Source: Candidatus Heimdallarchaeota archaeon
GTDB lineage: Archaea > Asgardarchaeota > Heimdallarchaeia > Heimdallarchaeales > Heimdallarchaeaceae
Assembly: GCA_019057815.1 (NCBI GenBank)
Contig: JAHLWR010000003.1
Location: 1-64,000 of the forward strand
DNA: 64,000 nt
Direction of reading: 5' to 3'
Shown here piece by piece: positions 2,243 through 11,785 of the stretch. The notes below the pieces were generated by a model. It did not search any database, was not told the origin of the DNA, and worked only from the letters and a program-made list of their open reading frames with translations. A program made the translations under genes and the position numbers. Position 1 is the first letter of the stretch. Every line of letters begins with the position of its first letter.

Positions 2243-3097
2243 CTACTTTACTGTTATATAGATATCAATTTCTATCATTTGTATGTTTAATAAATGTATG
2301 CTGTAATTAGGGTTTACTGGGAAATAGATTGGTCGCTCAGTTTGAGCTTTCCCATAATCATCGAACAGTTGCATTTCTCCATAAATATCATTGTTAAAGA
2401 TAATTGTGCTATATGTTGTTTTTCTAGTTCCATGATATTGTACATCAAGGAAGATATTTTTCTGTGAAACCGGGGTTGATGTTTCGTTTAAGATGAGATT
2501 TACATGAACTATATCCAGCATGTATATCTCAGTCATACCTTCTGTTTGATAATTTATGTTCAAGGAATATCGATAATATAATGATAAATATAGGAAGGAT
2601 GATTCTTCTCTTGTCCTTGATTCATTTAAAACCGAAATTTCATTGTAAAGTTTACTACTTCCATTGATCATTAGATAATCTTGTTTTTCAGGACCTATTA
2701 GGTACTTATGCTCTCCTTGTGAATAATCTGCTGTAGCTGTACTTTTATGTATCACTCTACTTACATTTTGTTGAATACTAAGGTGTTGTTGCTCTTCTCC
2801 TACCTCTCTGATGTAAAAAAACATCAGCCAATTTGAAGCAAATAGAAATGACCCCTCTGATTGTTGGATATATACTTCTCTAGTCAGTGGTGGTGGACTA
2901 TTAATCAGTTCATGAATCGTGTCATCAAGTGAAATGAAATACATGTGATTGCTATTATTGTAACTATTGTCTTTGAATATTGAAAGAGTTGGTCCCATAA
3001 ATGTCAGAGATATAGCTATAGCTGCTAGTATAAGTATAAACATCAAAATAACTGCAATTACTGGAGAGAGAGCTCTTCGATTCTTTAGAAATTTCAT
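2243..3097 (-). CDS. Archaeal type IV pilin-like protein with class III signal peptide
   Basis: MKFLKNRRA/LSPVIAVILMFILILAAI is a classic prepilin-peptidase motif. Confidence 0.85.
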   Translation of the reverse strand: MKFLKNRRALSPVIAVILMFILILAAIAISLTFMGPTLSIFKDNSYNNSNHMYFISLDDTIHELINSPPPLTREVYIQQSEGSFLFASNWLMFFYIREVGEEQQHLSIQQNVSRVIHKSTATADYSQGEHKYLIGPEKQDYLMINGSSKLYNEISVLNESRTREESSFLYLSLYYRYSLNINYQTEGMTEIYMLDIVHVNLILNETSTPVSQKNIFLDVQYHGTRKTTYSTIIFNNDIYGEMQLFDDYGKAQTERPIYFPVNPNYSIHLLNIQMIEIDIYITVK

Positions 3098-3454
3098 CTT
3101 TTGCTTATTTATGACTCTCTCTAATTAAAATCTATCGGCAGTTGTATTCCGATAAAGTTTTTAAAGATGTTAAATACACTTGATGTTCTAAGACAAAAAA
3201 CGTGTTCCTATGAAGTTTCAGGGCTTTAAAACAACGTTCGATTTTTGTCGGGACTAGAATGCTTTAAAAACATGTTAAAGTGCATTCTAACCGTCCTACA
3301 AAGGCTTAAATATACGTTTTCGTGCTTCCATTTAATAATCTGTGGTAGAGTTTTGATGAAACAATCACAAAAAAATAATATTGTCTGGGGGAAGGACTAA
3401 ACTTTGTGTAGTTTATTTAGTAAACTCTATATTAACAAATAAAGGGGAAAATTA

Positions 3455-6400
3455 TTGTCAAAGATTCAACTGTCAAAAAATGCTTTAACAGTGCTAGAAA
3501 AACGTTATCTCTTAAAAGATGAAAAGAGAAAAGTAGTAGAAAAACCTGAAGAACTATTTCAGAGGGTGGCTAATAGTATAGGAAACAATGAAGAGGAGAG
3601 GGAGAAGTTCTATGATTTAATGACTTCATTAAGATTTTTGCCAAATTGCATAACAAAGGATACATTAATACCAACAGATCAAGGTGTTTTCTCTTTAGGT
3701 GATATTCCTGCTGGTAAGACAAATTTCAATGTTTATTCAGACACAGGAAAAGAAACAGCCGAATACTGTTTTGATAATGGCTTCCATGAAATCTCAGAGA
3801 TAGAGACAGAAAATGGTTATTCTGTGAAATGTACCCCTCTTCACCACTTTCGAATTATTGATGAAAATGGTGATTATGTTTGGAGACAAACAAAAGATCT
3901 TCAAAATAATGACTGGATAGCTTTACATAGGGATTTTATAAATACCTATAATACGAAAATTAAATTAAATATTGAATTTGAAACGAAACAAGTGGGAGCT
4001 CCTCCAAAACCAATTACTCTACCAGAATATTTGTCGGAAGAACTTGCAGAATTTCTGGGTTTGTACATCGGTGATGGCTCTTTAAGGGATTATAGTTTGA
4101 GGTTTGGAGTTTTTGGAGAAGACACTGATTTGGTTAATAGAATCTGTAATTTATCCCAAGAATTATTCAACCTAGATCCGCAAGTAAAGAAATTAAGTAG
4201 AGCAAATATGTATGAAGTTTTACTAAATAGTATTCATCTCTCTTCTTATCTACGTAATAACGGTTTAGCTAAGAGTTCATCTTTAGAAGCTAAGGTTCCC
4301 AACCCCATATTGAAATCAAATAATAGAGTTATTCAAGCATTTATCAGAGGACTTTTTGAAGCTGATGGTTCTGTTAATGATAGAGGTATAGAATTTTTTT
4401 CAGCATCAAAACAGATTACAAAACAAATTCAATTTCTCTTACTCGGTCTAGGAATATGCTCGCGTGTAACTAGTAGAAAGGACGGTTACCGATTACATAT
4501 CAAAAATAATAGGGACGGGTTGTTATATAAAGATAAAATTGGTTTCTTAAGTATTCGAAAAACCTCACTTTTATCTCATATAAAACGTTCAAGCAATGAT
4601 TCAACCCATAAAATACCAAATCAGAGAAAGAAACTTCATGAATGGTATCAACATAATAAGGATTACAAACTCTACAAAAAATTAGCTCGTTTCTTGATTA
4701 AAGGTAAATACAAGCAAGAAATTTCAGAAGAAATATTTAACCAGTATTTAAAGGAATTCCCAAGTCTTAAAACACTCCCAATTGTGGAATTAATGGATAA
4801 TGGATTAGTTTTTCAAAAAATAAAAAAAATCACCCATAAAGAAGAAAAAGTCGAAGTAGGTGATCTTATGGTCCCCAATAATCATACCTATATAGCTAAT
4901 GGTTTCGTTAGCCATAATTCCCCTACATTAATGAATGCAGGAACAGACCTAGGGCAGTTATCTGCATGTTTTACAGAAGATCAGATTATAAACACAAGTG
5001 ATGGGAATAAGCACATTAAAAACATAGAAGTAGGTGACTATGTTTTAACTGCAACAGGGAATTACAAAAAAGTTACAGACACAATGATAAGAAAGTCTGA
5101 AGAAAGATATGAAATTGATGTCTGGAAGTTACCTAGTAAAACTCTCTCCGTTACTGAAGAACACCCCATTTTAGTCCTTAAGAATGGTGAAGCTACTTGG
5201 GTTCCTGTAAGAGAACTCAAAGAAAATGATTATGTTGCAATTTCATATCCTTCAAACACTGAAAATATTGAAAATATCAATGTAATTGACTACTTACATG
5301 ATGAAAGATTCTTTGTAGAAAATGGTTTTGTTTATCAATCAAACGTGGATTCTAGACTAAGAAGTGGTACTGTTAGTAACCAAGTCAAGCCAATTAAAAG
5401 CATTATTCCAATCAATCAAGATTTCATGAAATTTGTGGGTTATTATGCAAGTGAAGGTGATTCTAATGACAAAATGGTAAGGTTCACCTTCTCTGACAAA
5501 GAGGTTAAATTCGCTGTAGATATAAAAAATATAGTTGAAACTCTTTTTGGTTTAAAAACCAGAATTGAAGAGTCCTCTAGTGGTAATTGGATTAATATTC
5601 GTTTTCACTCTAAGATGTTTGCTGAATTCATCAAGAACTTATTAGGGACAGGTTTCAATAAGAAAAAACTTCCCAAGTGGATGCTAACACTACCACCTGA
5701 AAAACAAGAAGGATATATCTTGGGGTGCTTTAGAGGTGATAGTACTTTATATTTAAACAGACATATTCACAATGCACGATTAATAATGTGCAACTATGAC
5801 CTTGTTTACGCTGCTTGGGCTATGCTCTTACGAATCGGAATAGTTCCGAATTTAAGTACTTGCACGATGCCTGATATAGGTAATGAGCTTCCTTATTCAT
5901 GCACAATATCAGCTTCTCAAGCTCAAAATATGATGGAGGAAATATACAATACTCAAATTACTGGAATAAAGCAAATTTCAATGCAAAGATTGAAACATGT
6001 AAGCATTAATGGACAACTCTTCTTACCAATTCGAAAAATTGAGAGAATCAAGGAATCATGTGATGTCTACAATTTTGAAGTAGAGGATGAACACACTTAT
6101 GTTGCTAATGGAGTTTCAGTGCACAATTGTTTTGTCCTTCCTGTAGAAGATGATATGGGAGGGATTTTTGAAACTATAAAATCAGCTGCCCTGATTCAAC
6201 AATCAGGTGGGGGAACGGGTTTTAGTTTCTCTCGTTTGAGACCAAAGGGTGATGTTGTCAAAACAACAGGGGGTGTTGCATCGGGTCCCATTAGTTTTAT
6301 GGAAGTTTTCAATGCTGCAACAAATACTATAAAGCAAGGAGGATGTGTCGCTGCAGATAGTTTGATTCGTACTGATACAGGTACCATACCCATTGGTGAA

Positions 6401-9400
6401 CTCCTTAATTGCCCTCCTTTTGGTGAGAATCCTACAAAGTCATTAGTGTATGATGGTGACGACTTTAATCATGCTTACATATCAATGGATAATGGAGTCG
6501 CTGAAGTAATAACGATCACAACTGATCTTGGTATAGAACTTGAACCTACTTATAATCATCTTATTGCTAATGTAAATGAAGAAGGTGATTTAATTTGGAA
6601 GAGAGCTGAGGATCTAAAGGAGGATGATTGGATAGTAGTTGTTTTAGGTGGTCATAGTGGTAATGATTCCTTCTTGCCACCAGTAAAAGAACAACACCCC
6701 AATTCAAACCAAATCTCCCTACCAAAGAAAATTACACCTGAAATAGGAGAAATATTAGGTCTGTATATGGCCGATGGTTGTATCAGCACCCAAGGGCGAT
6801 TGGTATTTAGCTTGGACAATAAGGATTCTGATCTCATTCAAAGAATTCAAGATCTTATGCTGAAATCCTTTGGTCTTTCTGTAGGTACTGTTGACGATAA
6901 GGAGACTTATACAGATTTGTTCTTCTATTCTCGCGATTTATGTGACTACTTTGAGAAGATGAACTGGAAGAAAACATCCTCTTTTGATGCCTTTGTTCCT
7001 CAAATCATTTTCCAATCGTCTGAAGCTGTAGCTAAAGGTTTTATTCGAGGTTTATTTGCTGGAGATGGTGATGTCCATTCTGATGGTTATCCACGTTATT
7101 ATTCGATTTCTAAACAACTGATTAAACAATTACAACAATTACTATTAGGATTAGAAATCGTGTCCTCTATCACAATAAACGAAAAACGTTCAGGGAGTTT
7201 CGGTGATAAACCCATTTATATGCTTACAATCATTCCTGAAAGAAGTTTAACAATTTTTAAAAACGAAATTGGTTTTGCTTCTCAACGAAAGAATGATACA
7301 TTCTTCAAAAGATTTCCAAAGAAAGCTTTTGAATATGTTGACTATATTCCAAACCAACGCTCTAAGCTGAAACAACACTATAATTATGTTGGAACTGGAA
7401 CAGGTAAAGGAAGGACAAAAAGAGGTGCTAACCGTCAGTTCTATATAGCAATATATCATTATATCTTAGATTCTCCAAGCTCTTATAGAAACCTAACAAG
7501 AAAAAGGCTTCTACAATTATTCGAGAAATTCCCATTTTTAGCAGAAGATACCCATTTCAGAGAGATTTCTGACCCAAAGTATTATTTCACTCAAGTTCGT
7601 TCAATAAAAAGAAGTGAAATCTATACAATGGATATCGAAGTATCAGGATCAAATAAGTTCGTAGCAAACGGTGTTTTAGTTCATAACCGTCGCAGGGGGG
7701 CCAACATGGGTATCCTTCGAGTTGATCATCCTGATGTTATGGAGTTCATTACCTGTAAAGAAGATCAGAGTAGATTAACTAATTTTAACATCTCTATAGC
7801 AGTAACTGAATCTTTCATGAAAGCTGTGGAAAAAGGAGAAGATTACGATTTAATCAACCCTCGAACAAAAAAAGTTATAGGAAAACTGAATGCGAAGGAA
7901 GTCTTCAATAAGATAGTGGAACTATCATGGAAAAATGGCGAGCCTGGGATGGTCTTTATTGATAGAATAAACAAAAGCAATCCTACACCAGAGTTAGGGG
8001 AAATAGAGAGTACGAATCCATGTGTAACTGGAGATACACTTATAGCTACTGAAAAAGGATTAATGAGGATGGAGAAACTGGTTGAGCAATATGGTGAAGG
8101 AGGAATACCAATTGCGACAGATAATCGTGTTCCTGTTCAAGTTCCTAATGGTGATGGTACTGTTAGTTTGATGGAAGTTAAAGAAAAAGGTGTAACTCTA
8201 AGACCTATTACAAGAGCTTTTACTACCGGTATAAAAGATGTTTACAAAATAACTACTCAATCAGGGTATGAGCTCAAAGCTACTGCAGATCATAAAATGG
8301 TCACTAATGATGGTTGGATTGAAATTAGGAATATAGACCTAGAAAAACATAAATTACTCTTACAATCAGGAGAAGGAAAATTCAACAAAGATCTATCTCT
8401 TCCCTTTAAGATCCAAAATGAATTCATTGGTAATAATGGTAGAAAATATTCTTTCAACTTTCCATCCCAATGGTCTAAAGAACTAGGTCAAGTCATGGGG
8501 TGGTTAGTTGGTGATGGTTGGTTACGATCGGGAGATAAAAATTGTCGAGTAGGGTTCACTTTTGGAGAAAGAGATAAGAAAATTATGAACTATCTCAAAC
8601 CATTCATTAACAGTTGGTATGGAACCGATATTGAAGCTATAAAAAGGGAGAATGGTGTTTATCACCTTTCATATCACTCGAAATACTTTGTTGATTTCTT
8701 CAAGAAACTTGGAGTTAAACCAGTTAAGGCAGATAAGAAACAGGTACCAGAAACAATCTTTACAGCACCAAAGGAAGCAGTGATAGGATTCCTGCAAGGA
8801 TTATTTACAGCTGATGGTACCGTTGGTGTTAATGAAATAAACAACACTAATTATATTAGGTTAACATCTAAATCACTAAGATTGGTTAAAGAAATTCAGG
8901 TTTTACTAGCTAACTTCGGATTGAAATCCATAATATATGATCGAAGCAGACCGGCTAGGGAAAAACTATTTAAATATATAACTAGAAATGGGGAAACTAG
9001 ATTTTATGGGTCTGATGGTATCTGTTATGAGTTACAAATAAGTCGTGATTCCATAACAAAGTATCTAGATGTATTTGGATTTTTATGCAATAGACACAAA
9101 AAGAAAACCAGAATATTACAAGAGAAACATCTCATTGAAACCAAATATGAGGATGCTATTGTGTCTATAGATTATTTGGGTCAAGAAAGAGTATATGATT
9201 TAACAGAACCAAAAACGTTAACCTTCATTACAGGCGCTCTAGTGAGCGTTGACTGCGGGGAACAACCACTTTTGCCCTATGAGTCTTGTAATCTTGGTTC
9301 CATTAATCTTTCTCGCCACGTTACTAATGGTTCTATTGATTGGTCTCTTCTTGAAGACTCTGTTCGATTTGCTGTTCTTTTCTTAGATAATGTTATTGAT

Positions 9401-10651
9401 AAGAATCGTTATGTTCTTCCTGAAATTGAGGAAATGACTAAGGGTAATCGTAAAATTGGTTTAGGCGTCATGGGTTTTGCTGATTTATTAGTTAAGTTGA
9501 ACATTGTTTATGATTCTAAGGAAGCTTTAACAATTGCTGAGGAAATAATGTCTTTCGTCCAGAAGATTGGTAGAGATGAATCGATCAAACTAGGCAAAGA
9601 GAAAGGAAGTTTTCCCAACTTCAAACATAGTATTTTCAAGGAAAAATATGAAGCCATGAGAAATGCTACTATAACAACTATAGCACCTACTGGGACGATA
9701 TCTCTGATCGCTGGGAATTCAAGTGGTATTGAGCCCTATTATGCGGTGGCTTATACACGTAATGTTCTTGGTGGAGAGAAACTTTTTGATGTTAATCCCT
9801 TATTTGAATCTATAGCAAAAGAAAGAGGTTTTTACTCACAAGAGCTCATTGAAGAAATCGCTTCTAGAAATTCGATTAAAGAAATGGATGAAATACCTGA
9901 GGATGTAAGAAAGATTTTTACTACGTCACATGATCTTACACCTGAGTGGCATATAAAACTTCAAGCAGCTTTCCAAAAACACGTTGACAATGCAACCTCA
10001 AAGACTATCAATTTTCCATCTTCCGCAACCAAGGAAGATATAGCCAAAGCTTACATCTTGGCTTACAAAAACGATTGTAAAGGAATAACAGTCTATAGAG
10101 ATGGATCTCGAAAATATCAAGTACTGAGCACAAAAAAGAAAGAAACGGAAGAAAAACAATCCTTAGAAAAACTTGTTACAGAAGAAAATGGGAGAATTAG
10201 AGGTAGAGTGGAACCAAGAGATAGGCCTAATACAACAATGGGAAAAACACACAAAGTAAAATCTGGGTGCGGTAACTTGTATGTCACAGTTAATAGAGAT
10301 GAGTTTGGAGTGTGTGAAGTTTTTGTTTCTGTAGGAAAATCTGGAGGGTGCATTGCAAGTCAGAGCGAAGCTGTGGGAAGATTAATATCCCTAGCACTAC
10401 GTTCAGGTGTAAAACTTGACTCAGTAGCAAGACAACTTGTTGGAATCAGATGCCCAAATCCTAGTTTCTACGAAGGTAATACGATTCTTTCCTGTGCTGA
10501 TGGTATTGCGCATGTTCTAGAAAAATACATTGATGGTAATAAAATAATCAGACCAAATGGAACAATAGCTTGCCCAGAATGCGGTGGGATGTTAGAAATC
10601 AGCGAAGGATGTTATATTTGTAGAGTTTGTGGTTATAGCAAATGTGATTAA
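3455..10651 (+). CDS. nrdJ: Class II (adenosylcobalamin-dependent) ribonucleotide reductase precursor with 4 inteins; about 728 aa when spliced, with C-terminal TSCPD domain and Zn ribbon
   Basis: After removing inteins: FLPN|SPTLMNAG..QLSA|CFVLP..GGGTGFSFSRLRPKG..KQGG|RRRGANM..STNP|CGEQPL.PYESCNLGSINL..TIAPTGTIS..CKGITVYRDGS; C-terminal KSGCGNLYVTVN and CPECG..CRVCGYSKC; TTG start with GGGG RBS; no ATP cone. Confidence 0.96.
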   Translation: MSKIQLSKNALTVLEKRYLLKDEKRKVVEKPEELFQRVANSIGNNEEEREKFYDLMTSLRFLPNCITKDTLIPTDQGVFSLGDIPAGKTNFNVYSDTGKETAEYCFDNGFHEISEIETENGYSVKCTPLHHFRIIDENGDYVWRQTKDLQNNDWIALHRDFINTYNTKIKLNIEFETKQVGAPPKPITLPEYLSEELAEFLGLYIGDGSLRDYSLRFGVFGEDTDLVNRICNLSQELFNLDPQVKKLSRANMYEVLLNSIHLSSYLRNNGLAKSSSLEAKVPNPILKSNNRVIQAFIRGLFEADGSVNDRGIEFFSASKQITKQIQFLLLGLGICSRVTSRKDGYRLHIKNNRDGLLYKDKIGFLSIRKTSLLSHIKRSSNDSTHKIPNQRKKLHEWYQHNKDYKLYKKLARFLIKGKYKQEISEEIFNQYLKEFPSLKTLPIVELMDNGLVFQKIKKITHKEEKVEVGDLMVPNNHTYIANGFVSHNSPTLMNAGTDLGQLSACFTEDQIINTSDGNKHIKNIEVGDYVLTATGNYKKVTDTMIRKSEERYEIDVWKLPSKTLSVTEEHPILVLKNGEATWVPVRELKENDYVAISYPSNTENIENINVIDYLHDERFFVENGFVYQSNVDSRLRSGTVSNQVKPIKSIIPINQDFMKFVGYYASEGDSNDKMVRFTFSDKEVKFAVDIKNIVETLFGLKTRIEESSSGNWINIRFHSKMFAEFIKNLLGTGFNKKKLPKWMLTLPPEKQEGYILGCFRGDSTLYLNRHIHNARLIMCNYDLVYAAWAMLLRIGIVPNLSTCTMPDIGNELPYSCTISASQAQNMMEEIYNTQITGIKQISMQRLKHVSINGQLFLPIRKIERIKESCDVYNFEVEDEHTYVANGVSVHNCFVLPVEDDMGGIFETIKSAALIQQSGGGTGFSFSRLRPKGDVVKTTGGVASGPISFMEVFNAATNTIKQGGCVAADSLIRTDTGTIPIGELLNCPPFGENPTKSLVYDGDDFNHAYISMDNGVAEVITITTDLGIELEPTYNHLIANVNEEGDLIWKRAEDLKEDDWIVVVLGGHSGNDSFLPPVKEQHPNSNQISLPKKITPEIGEILGLYMADGCISTQGRLVFSLDNKDSDLIQRIQDLMLKSFGLSVGTVDDKETYTDLFFYSRDLCDYFEKMNWKKTSSFDAFVPQIIFQSSEAVAKGFIRGLFAGDGDVHSDGYPRYYSISKQLIKQLQQLLLGLEIVSSITINEKRSGSFGDKPIYMLTIIPERSLTIFKNEIGFASQRKNDTFFKRFPKKAFEYVDYIPNQRSKLKQHYNYVGTGTGKGRTKRGANRQFYIAIYHYILDSPSSYRNLTRKRLLQLFEKFPFLAEDTHFREISDPKYYFTQVRSIKRSEIYTMDIEVSGSNKFVANGVLVHNRRRGANMGILRVDHPDVMEFITCKEDQSRLTNFNISIAVTESFMKAVEKGEDYDLINPRTKKVIGKLNAKEVFNKIVELSWKNGEPGMVFIDRINKSNPTPELGEIESTNPCVTGDTLIATEKGLMRMEKLVEQYGEGGIPIATDNRVPVQVPNGDGTVSLMEVKEKGVTLRPITRAFTTGIKDVYKITTQSGYELKATADHKMVTNDGWIEIRNIDLEKHKLLLQSGEGKFNKDLSLPFKIQNEFIGNNGRKYSFNFPSQWSKELGQVMGWLVGDGWLRSGDKNCRVGFTFGERDKKIMNYLKPFINSWYGTDIEAIKRENGVYHLSYHSKYFVDFFKKLGVKPVKADKKQVPETIFTAPKEAVIGFLQGLFTADGTVGVNEINNTNYIRLTSKSLRLVKEIQVLLANFGLKSIIYDRSRPAREKLFKYITRNGETRFYGSDGICYELQISRDSITKYLDVFGFLCNRHKKKTRILQEKHLIETKYEDAIVSIDYLGQERVYDLTEPKTLTFITGALVSVDCGEQPLLPYESCNLGSINLSRHVTNGSIDWSLLEDSVRFAVLFLDNVIDKNRYVLPEIEEMTKGNRKIGLGVMGFADLLVKLNIVYDSKEALTIAEEIMSFVQKIGRDESIKLGKEKGSFPNFKHSIFKEKYEAMRNATITTIAPTGTISLIAGNSSGIEPYYAVAYTRNVLGGEKLFDVNPLFESIAKERGFYSQELIEEIASRNSIKEMDEIPEDVRKIFTTSHDLTPEWHIKLQAAFQKHVDNATSKTINFPSSATKEDIAKAYILAYKNDCKGITVYRDGSRKYQVLSTKKKETEEKQSLEKLVTEENGRIRGRVEPRDRPNTTMGKTHKVKSGCGNLYVTVNRDEFGVCEVFVSVGKSGGCIASQSEAVGRLISLALRSGVKLDSVARQLVGIRCPNPSFYEGNTILSCADGIAHVLEKYIDGNKIIRPNGTIACPECGGMLEISEGCYICRVCGYSKCD
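3647..4918 (+). mobile_element. Intein 1 (424 aa) with LAGLIDADG homing endonuclease, site FLPN/SPTL
   Basis: Cys1 CITKDT, block B CTPLHHF, LAEFLGLYIGDG and FIRGLFEADG motifs, ends NGFVSHN, +1 Ser. Confidence 0.93.
4967..6127 (+). mobile_element. Intein 2 (387 aa) with LAGLIDADG-type domain, site QLSA/CFVL
   Basis: CFTEDQ start, VTEEHP, FVGYYASEG and YILGCFRGD, ends VYNFEVEDEHTYVANGVSVHN, +1 Cys. Confidence 0.93.
6344..7687 (+). mobile_element. Intein 3 (448 aa) with LAGLIDADG endonuclease, site KQGG/RRRG, non-canonical +1 Arg
   Basis: CVAADS start, PTYNH, ILGLYMADG and FIRGLFAGDG, ends FVANGVLVHN followed by CGT (Arg). Confidence 0.9.
8021..9253 (+). mobile_element. Intein 4 (411 aa) with LAGLIDADG endonuclease, site STNP/CGEQ, C-terminal Asp
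   Basis: CVTGDT start, ATADH, MGWLVGDG and FLQGLFTADG, ends VYDLTEPKTLTFITGALVSVD, +1 Cys (thiyl-radical Cys). Confidence 0.9.
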
Positions 10652-10717
10652 ATTCAACCTTTTCGTTTTTTGAAATATCTCAGAAGCACAAGCTTTTTGA
10701 GGTTATTTCTTAATTCA

Positions 10718-11785
10718 ATGATAATGATAATATGGTTTGATGCGGTTACTTCTAAAGAACCTTTACTCTTCAATGCAATTGCGAAAGAACTGGAGAAAGA
10801 TGGTCATGAAGCGATTTTTACTTGCAGAGATTATGATTATGTTGTAAGTTTATTTGATTTACTTAATCTTGAAGTTAATGTTCTAGGTCGTCATGGAGGG
10901 GGAAAATTGTATGGTAAACTTAAAGCGGGAAATGAAAGAATAGGCCTTTTAGCAGATTTCATTTTTAAATTAGAGAAAAAACCTGATTTTCATATAAGTT
11001 TTGCATGCCCAGAATCAACAAGAGTAGCTTTTGGACTAGGAATTCCAGTTACGATTATTAATGATTCACCTCATGCAAAAGCTGTTGGGAAGTTAACTAT
11101 ACCTTTGTCTAAATATCTTATCTACAGCTCTTGTATAAGCGAAAGATTATGGCTAGAGTTAGGAGCTGTTAAAGAGCAATTAGTACCTTACAATGGTATT
11201 GATGAAGTAGCTTGGTTGAAAGATTTCAATCCTAACTCTGAGGTGTTAGAAACACTTAATTTATCACCAAATGATCGTTTCATTATTGCTAGACCTGAAG
11301 AAAGTAGTGCTGCCTATATGTTAGAAGATGGAAACATTGGTGGAACAAAACTAGAGTTTATCCTAGATGCTATATTTGAGAAATATGATGGAAAAGCCGT
11401 TGTTTTTCCACGCTACGAAGAGCAAAAGCATAAAATGATAGAAACATATGGGGAGAAAATCATTGTCCCTCCTAGAGCAGTGGATACACTTTCTCTCTGT
11501 TACTACTCTGATTTGTGCGTAACAGGTGGAGCTACTATGGCAAGAGAAGCTGCTGCTCTTGGTACACCTTCAATATCCTATTATCCACGACATTTAGACG
11601 TTTTATCATACATCTCTTCTTTAGGGATTCCTTTGTATAACGAGTATTCAATAGATGATGCAATAAAACGTTCTCTTGAGTTAATTAATCATCAAGCTGA
11701 TCGTGTAAATTTAAGGAATAAAACCAAAAAAATCCTGAAAACGCTAGAATCTCCACTTGTTCCAATAACTAAAATTCTTACTTAA
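10718..11785 (+). CDS. DUF354 family GT-B-fold protein
   Basis: IWFDAVTSKE, GRHGGG, NDSPHA, RPEE..AAY, GGATMAREAAALGTPSIS; ATG at 10718 or 10724 is more likely than the TTG at 10670. Confidence 0.8.
   Translation: MIMIIWFDAVTSKEPLLFNAIAKELEKDGHEAIFTCRDYDYVVSLFDLLNLEVNVLGRHGGGKLYGKLKAGNERIGLLADFIFKLEKKPDFHISFACPESTRVAFGLGIPVTIINDSPHAKAVGKLTIPLSKYLIYSSCISERLWLELGAVKEQLVPYNGIDEVAWLKDFNPNSEVLETLNLSPNDRFIIARPEESSAAYMLEDGNIGGTKLEFILDAIFEKYDGKAVVFPRYEEQKHKMIETYGEKIIVPPRAVDTLSLCYYSDLCVTGGATMAREAAALGTPSISYYPRHLDVLSYISSLGIPLYNEYSIDDAIKRSLELINHQADRVNLRNKTKKILKTLESPLVPITKILT

Follow-up and report, generated by a model that had tools for sequence, protein, structure and literature searches.

Introduction

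All described intein classes need a cysteine, serine or threonine as the first residue of the C-extein (position +1), and in canonical splicing the side chain of this residue is used in steps 2 and 4 (PMC4031507). This rule governs the recognition of inteins in genomes and limits where intein tools are usable. In this study, intein 3 of nrdJ, the gene of a class II (B12-dependent) ribonucleotide reductase (RNR) of a Candidatus Heimdallarchaeota archaeon, was investigated. The gene lies on contig JAHLWR010000003.1 (assembly GCA_019057815.1), of which the first 64,000 nucleotides were analysed as one stretch, here called the window. All coordinates are those of the window and all features lie on its forward strand. 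Intein 3 is followed by arginine. It belongs to a natural and widespread lineage, which breaks the +1 rule in an essential enzyme present as a single copy.

The loss of a nucleophile regarded as required is known from class 2 (Mja KlbA) and class 3 inteins (DnaB-type, with Trp/Cys/Thr). Both are monophyletic lineages in which the mechanism was compensated. They have no nucleophile at position 1 and still need Cys, Ser or Thr at +1, whereas the lineage of intein 3 keeps Cys1 and is without the +1 nucleophile. Splicing in the absence of a +1 nucleophile is known from type A bacterial intein-like (BIL) domains (Amitai 2003; Dassa 2004; Aranko 2013 for CthBIL4), for which thioester formation, Asn cyclisation and aminolysis by the alpha-amine were proposed (PMC4031507). 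These domains resemble intein 3 in the HINT domain, the N-terminal Cys, the C-terminal His-Asn and the missing +1 nucleophile. In contrast, they are small, contain no homing endonuclease and are located in variable regions of non-essential bacterial proteins, while intein 3 is a mobile element of 448 amino acids (aa) with an endonuclease in a conserved loop of an essential archaeal enzyme.

Canonical class 1 inteins are known from the same insertion site, which reads QGG/T or S-RRGA (for example P0017, P0019, P0025, P0043 and P0068; the slash marks the junction). They share architecture and length (about 430-460 aa) with intein 3, are 27-40% identical throughout and are its nearest neighbours on the tree described below. 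Cys1, the Thr and His of block B, Asp at F:4 and the terminal His-Asn are common to both groups. The canonical sisters differ in Thr or Ser at +1, in Ser or Thr at G:5, and in the block F His; the clade of intein 3 has R, K, I or V at +1, V, I or L at G:5, and this His only rarely. Regarding the host enzyme, the split NrdA of Aeromonas phage Aeh1 demonstrates that an RNR catalytic subunit works as two chains divided inside the barrel (PMC3045599). There a free-standing endonuclease split the gene itself, the position differs from that in the present RNR, and acquired tail peptides are needed.

In the literature no description of an RNR or Asgard intein lineage without a +1 nucleophile was found; the coverage was incomplete and a prior description is possible. 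A preprint of 2025 on 'non-canonical inteins' deals with endonuclease architecture and not with the +1 residue.

Results

Intein 3 (6344..7687) combines a HINT splicing domain and a LAGLIDADG homing endonuclease with two motifs, which is inserted into the former. Its junctions read TIKQGG/CVAADSLIRT at the N-terminus and FVANGVLVHN/RRRGANMG at the C-terminus. The block A nucleophile Cys1 (aa 964 of the nrdJ product) is encoded by TGT at 6344..6346, and block B (T-Y-N-H, intein residues 69-72) is located at 6548..6559. LAGLIDADG motif 1 (LGLYMADGC, residues 138-146, acidic residue Asp144) occupies 6755..6781 and motif 2 (GLFAGDGD, residues 236-243, acidic residue Asp241) 7049..7072. Blocks F and G, YTMDIEVSGSNKFVANGVLVHN, extend over 7622..7687, with Asn at the position of the block F His and Val at G:5. 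They end with H447-N448 (CAT AAC, 7682..7687, aa 1410-1411). The following codon CGT (7688..7690) encodes Arg (aa 1412), the opening residue of extein 4. A previous reading of the window from sequence only had named Cys1, the block B TxxH, both LAGLIDADG motifs and the His-Asn of this intein and the CGT codon after it; this observation was confirmed at its exact coordinates.

Intein-free NrdJ genes run uninterrupted through QGG/xRRGA, with R, K, T, M, S, A, V or C as x. Hence, the boundaries of intein 3 are unambiguous and Arg is the first residue of the C-extein. Shifted junctions were considered and rejected: none yields a nucleophile while preserving the native loop sequence. The nearest Ser, Thr or Cys of the C-extein is located 21-22 residues downstream. 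The proposal of the sequence-only reading that Arg is the native host residue holds, as intein-free Heimdall alleles show R or K before RRGA and an intein-less allele from a metagenome reads QGG/KR.

By its HINT fold with blocks A, B, F and G, Cys1, Thr and His in block B and the C-terminal Asn, intein 3 corresponds to class 1, and it is inserted in frame at a conserved site for which intein-free homologues exist. The residue at +1, which is Cys, Ser or Thr in class 1, is Arg. The triad of class 3, Trp(B:12)-Cys(F:4)-Thr(G:5), was not found; intein 3 has Cys1, Asp at F:4 and Val at G:5. With Pfam, intein 3 alone gave Intein_splicing with 47.4 bits (cut-off 35.8) and LAGLIDADG_3 with 83.1 bits in two stretches. 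No match to Hint_2 or PT-HINT was obtained, and kinship with BIL domains was not supported, as the tree places the intein within the RNR inteins. [quoted passage not shown] Its top matches with Foldseek were TliVMA (7qss, E 1e-27), PI-PfuI (1dq3, a Pyrococcus RNR intein) and PI-SceI. All three combine HINT and LAGLIDADG parts and were matched with E 1e-27 to 1e-14 and template modelling (TM) scores of 0.5-0.7; 7qss/7qsu were also matched by the sequence of intein 3 (E 5e-12). They differ from intein 3 in their insertion sites, are 14-21% identical to it and use canonical +1 nucleophiles. The endonuclease is predicted to be of the two-motif LAGLIDADG type with a role in homing, judging from the retained acidic residues, the patchy spread and the empty target sites.

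To examine the distribution of such inteins, 1.8 billion cluster representatives were searched exhaustively with HMMER; the query was intein 3 with ten flanking residues on each side. Full inteins at the QGG/x site were found in 68 representatives. The +1 residue was Thr or Ser in 37 and Arg, Lys, Val or Ile in 31. A maximum-likelihood tree was built from the intein sequences with the +1 residue left out. The 31 inteins without nucleophile form one side of a branch with a Shimodaira-Hasegawa-like approximate likelihood ratio test (SH-aLRT) support of 100, so that the pattern can be explained by one change of state; this clade adjoins the canonical Thr/Ser(+1) inteins of the same site. The lineage is old, monophyletic and still mobile, and it is derived from class 1 LAGLIDADG inteins.

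A species-level scan, with one genome per prokaryotic species and a pattern which used the block G motif and not the +1 residue, detected the lineage in the genomes of 52 other species. According to the labels of the scan, the Asgard hosts are Heimdall-, Hod-, Hermod- and Thorarchaeota, and the DPANN hosts are Micr-, Aenigmat-, Woese- and Nanoarchaeota. Further hosts were Methanoperedens, Hydrothermarchaeales, Thermoplasmata/Methanomassiliicoccales, Nitrososphaeria, Culexmicrobium and Anaerolineae/Caldilineae (Chloroflexota). The 52 alleles have Lys (31), Arg (17) or Ile (4) at +1 and none has Ser, Thr or Cys. Together with the window, 53 alleles (K31 R18 I4) use eleven codons at this position, and in 51 of these alleles the codon lies one substitution from a codon for Ser, Thr or Cys. 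A tabulation of the +1 residue had been proposed with the sequence-only reading; none of the 53 alleles of the lineage has a nucleophile. Many bacterial NrdJs tolerate Thr here. Since Ser, Thr and Cys are nevertheless wholly absent, the lineage gains nothing from a nucleophile. A single-protein scan of genome contigs revealed NrdJ inteins at other nearby sites, none at QGG/x, and readable empty sites.

One representative nested in the clade without nucleophile, P0016 (1111 aa), reads KQG/C at its N-terminal and LLVHN/SFRRGA at its C-terminal junction. The junction was moved by one residue and the host Gly became Ser. Thus, Ser is present at +1 and Val still at G:5, which looks like a re-acquired nucleophile. 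Such a shift by one residue is impossible for the allele of the window.

CGT is one base away from TGT and AGT, and a sequencing error or recoding had therefore been raised as an explanation together with a check of the reads at 7688-7690. For this purpose, Logan contigs from four public runs were compared over 6200-7900. In the probable source sample the depth was 39 and no variant occurred across the stretch. The contig of a different study, 96% identical with 63 differences, keeps CGT at +1; its sole difference near the junction is a silent substitution in the codon of the following Arg. Among 60 related genomes searched, ten contain full-length orthologues of intein 3 at the same site with 56-77% identity, and an eleventh contains an N-terminal fragment cut by the contig end. 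In all ten Heimdall orthologues His-Asn is followed by Arg (CGT, CGC, CGG) or Lys (AAA). With the same codon in an independent contig, these orthologues and eleven different K, R and I codons over 53 alleles, an error of sequencing or assembly, or recoding, is practically out of the question.

A third metagenome (run X3, marine sediment) contained intein-bearing pieces of a close relative together with an intein-less allele, which joins 6327 to 7694 via CAGGGTGGTAAGCGT. Thus, the site of intein 3 is polymorphic in this habitat. Among related genomes with NrdJ the element was present in about 12 of 50, and QGGxRRGA was uninterrupted in about 38 of these 50 and in many others. The closest relatives of the window by their exteins (flank identity 95% and 90%) have no intein 3; more distant ones carry it. 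Such patchiness, together with the residue conservation and the low dN/dS described below, characterises a homing element with junction chemistry under selection.

The conservation of single residues was compared between the 31 cluster representatives without nucleophile and the 37 canonical ones (Thr/Ser at +1). At the N-terminal junction Cys1 and the block B Thr (T69) are present in 31/31 and the block B His (H72) in 28/31 members of the clade. The penultimate His (H447) and the terminal Asn (N448) are invariant (31/31 each), and Asp is found at F:4 in 27/31. For the acidic residues of the LAGLIDADG motifs, 28/31 (Asp144) and 30/31 (Asp241) were counted. Two positions distinguish the groups. 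At G:5, three residues from the end counting the last, V, I or L stands in 31/31 members of the clade versus S, T or C in 36/37 canonical sisters, and the block F His occurs in 2/31 versus 29/37. Conserved only in the clade are Arg9, Asp/Glu28 (not Trp), Tyr70 in block B (not Pro) and Ala75 (not Lys/Arg). Furthermore, a Cys23-Pro-Pro loop (intein residues 23-25, 6410-6418) was found in 24-25/31 members and is absent from the canonical sisters. The model confidence is low in this loop (pLDDT < 50). A disulfide between Cys23 and Cys1 is conceivable, as is a different role of the loop. Apart from this loop, nothing was found for the idea that intein 3 acts as a conditional switch, which the sequence-only reading had mentioned.

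In a sub-lineage formed by P0020, P0024 and the allele of Nanoarchaeota archaeon YN1 (L149), the block B His is replaced by Glu (TYDE) and the F:4 Asp by His together. This pair of changes looks like a compensatory swap.

The ratio of nonsynonymous to synonymous substitution rates (dN/dS) between pairs of Heimdall orthologues was 0.06-0.31 over the N-splice, endonuclease and C-splice parts, with saturated dS; the endonuclease part gave 0.06-0.19. Values for the exteins were discarded as unreliable, because the fixed flanks overlapped neighbouring inteins in some genomes. Copies of 368-384 aa, in which 64-80 endonuclease residues are deleted, occur in Candidatus Heimdallarchaeum endolithica PR6 (L094/L119), L150, L155 and P0026. 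They keep Cys1, His-Asn and R or K at +1. In these shortened copies the endonuclease is apparently decaying while the junctions are retained. The assumption of a dead allele, also considered in the sequence-only reading, is refuted: the intein is under purifying selection, and all orthologues as well as the 53 alleles have K, R or I at +1.

The host gene is a class II RNR by all features compared: the PF02867 barrel, the catalytic Cys motifs and the homology to Thermotoga maritima NrdJ. The exteins keep all catalytic motifs, and the SAC/F and NP/CGE motifs are whole again after removal of the inteins. The source genome is a metagenome-assembled genome (MAG) of the Heimdall group of the Asgard archaea with 3.7 Mb and 95% completeness. 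A search for a second RNR, suggested with the sequence-only reading, revealed no further PF02867 gene and no NrdD in this genome. The same result was obtained for five more relatives with the intein, namely two closed genomes (apparently Candidatus Heimdallarchaeum aukensis PM71 and H. endolithica PR6) and three others of the Heimdall class, and for the closed genome of Nanoarchaeota YN1 and a Micrarchaeota chromosome. Thus, in eight genomes tested, of which four are closed, no RNR other than nrdJ was found.

Extein 4 was aligned to residues 206-321 of T. maritima NrdJ (1xje) with E 6e-17, which places intein 3 between Gly205 and Arg206. Gln203, Arg207 and the carbonyl of residue 208 of T. maritima correspond to Gln294, Arg298 and the carbonyl of residue 299 of Escherichia coli, where loop 2 comprises residues 292-301 (Zimanyi et al. 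2016, PMC4728125). The end of extein 3 (6128..6343, aa 892-963, ending NAATNTIKQGG; PF02867 profile positions 2-74) is the N-terminal half of this loop, and its Gln is Gln203 of T. maritima. Extein 4 (7688..8020, aa 1412-1522) begins with RRRGANMGILRVDHPD and ends with STNP. Intein 3 therefore splits the flexible specificity loop 2 in its middle, two residues past the Gln that selects pyrimidines; the essential 'latch' Arg follows one residue later. The +1 position is Arg206 of T. maritima and Val297 of E. coli and is naturally variable; the spectrum of R, K, I, V, T and S at +1 fits this variability. A nick in loop 2 is likely to cost function, because backbone contacts at this position read effector and substrate.

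Discussion

Canonical splicing is impossible for intein 3, since its steps 2 and 4 depend on the side chain at +1. As nrdJ is the only RNR of the host, the precursor must mature without a branched ester intermediate. For the intein-bearing RNR lineage a route which matures the enzyme without +1 nucleophile must therefore exist. By analogy to type A BIL domains, splicing via thioester formation, Asn cyclisation and alpha-amine attack is the most likely route, and its chance is regarded as about even. An N-S acyl shift at Gly(-1)-Cys1 would give the thioester. Asn448 would cyclise and free the alpha-amino group of Arg(+1), which would directly attack the unhindered Gly thioester and rebuild the QGG-RRRGA peptide bond. 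The RNR barrel, folded by then, and the intein would keep the loop ends together, so that any side chain would be tolerated at +1. Gly at -1 provides the least hindered thioester, as in native chemical ligation. The set of residues conserved in the clade is exactly what thioester formation and Asn cyclisation require. R, K, I and V at +1 have no reactive group in common; hence, the route should be independent of the +1 side chain. An isopeptide route via the epsilon-amine of Lys was rejected, as Arg, Ile and Val are also found at +1. The loss of Ser/Thr at G:5 and of the block F His may reflect relaxation or retuning of residues which serve the branched intermediate.

Several points weigh against ligation by this route. 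We infer ligation; no product was observed. BIL chemistry serves as an analogy only, because the lineage is nested in RNR inteins and has no Hint_2 or PT-HINT match. The block F His is usually thought to aid Asn cyclisation, and its loss is not obviously favourable. In studied inteins Asn cyclisation is normally restrained until the branched intermediate has formed. With type A BIL domains the cleavage products outweigh the spliced product, and one BIL domain spliced only once Cys was placed at +1 (PMC4031507). Furthermore, Culexmicrobium and Methanoperedens hosts also possess NrdD. Thus, not every host depends on the intein-bearing nrdJ.

The predominance of cleavage in type A BIL domains (PMC4031507) leads to the main alternative. 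Both junctions might be cut only, the N-terminal one by hydrolysis or thiolysis of the Cys1 thioester and the C-terminal one by Asn cyclisation, giving a non-covalent two-chain RNR nicked in loop 2. The same conserved Cys1, block B and His-Asn would be needed for this, and the two-chain class Ia RNR of phage Aeh1, split between barrel strands, is fully active (PMC3045599). The phage enzyme, however, required extra tail peptides for assembly, whereas the ends in the present RNR are the exact native loop sequence. In the loop which transmits specificity, charged termini would come to lie between Gln203 and Arg207, an essential residue, and the lineage has long persisted as sole RNR with no sign of a cost. 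Cleavage without ligation is thus considered unlikely, although it is the strongest competitor of splicing. Ligation could also proceed by another route, with a host helper such as a peptide ligase or transpeptidase or by a different chemistry inside the intein. Arg9, Cys23-Pro-Pro, Asp/Glu28 and Tyr70, conserved in the clade and without an assigned role, would suit this explanation, as would the sub-lineage that jointly swaps the block B His to Glu and the F:4 Asp to His. No candidate partner was seen, however, and a shared helper is unlikely for a mobile element whose hosts span Asgard, DPANN (genomes <1 Mb), Euryarchaeota-like groups and Chloroflexota. This route is judged improbable.

It is very improbable that no processing occurs at all, with intein 3 staying in loop 2 as a domain or with a non-functional gene and deoxynucleoside triphosphates obtained from elsewhere. 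The missing nucleophile alone and the partner dependence of the DPANN hosts would agree with it. Against it stand the invariant junction residues and the low dN/dS. Function is hardly compatible with a 50-kDa insert in a specificity loop of 10 residues at the dimer interface, the exteins retain all catalytic motifs, and the gene is the sole RNR in free-living Heimdall genomes.

Splicing by alpha-amine attack thus remains the preferred reading. It can be extended, with a likelihood somewhat short of even, to a fourth mechanistic class of true inteins. These would be mobile, endonuclease-bearing elements, which splice efficiently without a side-chain nucleophile at +1 by an alpha-amine attack templated by the host fold. 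They would have shed the block F His and the Ser/Thr at G:5, and the change would have enabled the invasion of every archaeal NrdJ with Arg, Lys, Ile or Val at this position of loop 2. If splicing is true, aminolysis of the BIL type is efficient enough for an essential gene, the colonisation of sites without nucleophile by inteins is explained, and a starting point for scar-free protein ligation without junction requirement is available. If only cleavage takes place, an RNR nicked in the allosteric specificity loop makes the DNA precursors of many archaea, among them the closest relatives of eukaryotes that are known, which would be equally unexpected.

Other features of nrdJ and its relatives

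The nrdJ gene (3455..10651) is a single open frame of 2398 aa including four inteins and a C-terminal TSCPD domain. Pfam matches were Ribonuc_red_lgC (PF02867) with 421 bits, Ribonuc_red_lgN and the C-terminal TSCPD, interrupted four times by Intein_splicing and LAGLIDADG domains. An Rfam scan of 3000-11000 matched no family; thus, there is no sign of an intron-type element.

From translation and Pfam, intein 1 (3647..4918, 424 aa) is canonical, with Cys1 and a terminal His-Asn followed by Ser. It is separated from intein 2 by a micro-extein of 16 aa, SPTLMNAGTDLGQLSA (4919..4966, from translation). Intein 2 (4967..6127, 387 aa) is canonical as well; its Cys1 and His-Asn are followed by the cysteine of SAC/F. 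In a relative of the same genus (L007, 8H_bin2) inteins 1 and 2 are near-identical to those of the window, and site 3 is empty with Lys.

Two contigs of the species-level scan deserve mention. The extein and intein of L139, labelled Acidobacteria, closely match those of several Thermoplasmata-like soil MAGs (the EA_x series) and are nearly identical to them, so that this contig is probably mis-binned. The contig of L127 (Patescibacteria) is only 2.4 kb long.

Intein 4 (8021..9253, 411 aa) was identified by translation and Pfam. It begins with Cys1 and ends with Val-Asp, that is with a C-terminal Asp (GAC) and without the penultimate His. The next residue is the Cys of NPCGE, the radical-site cysteine.

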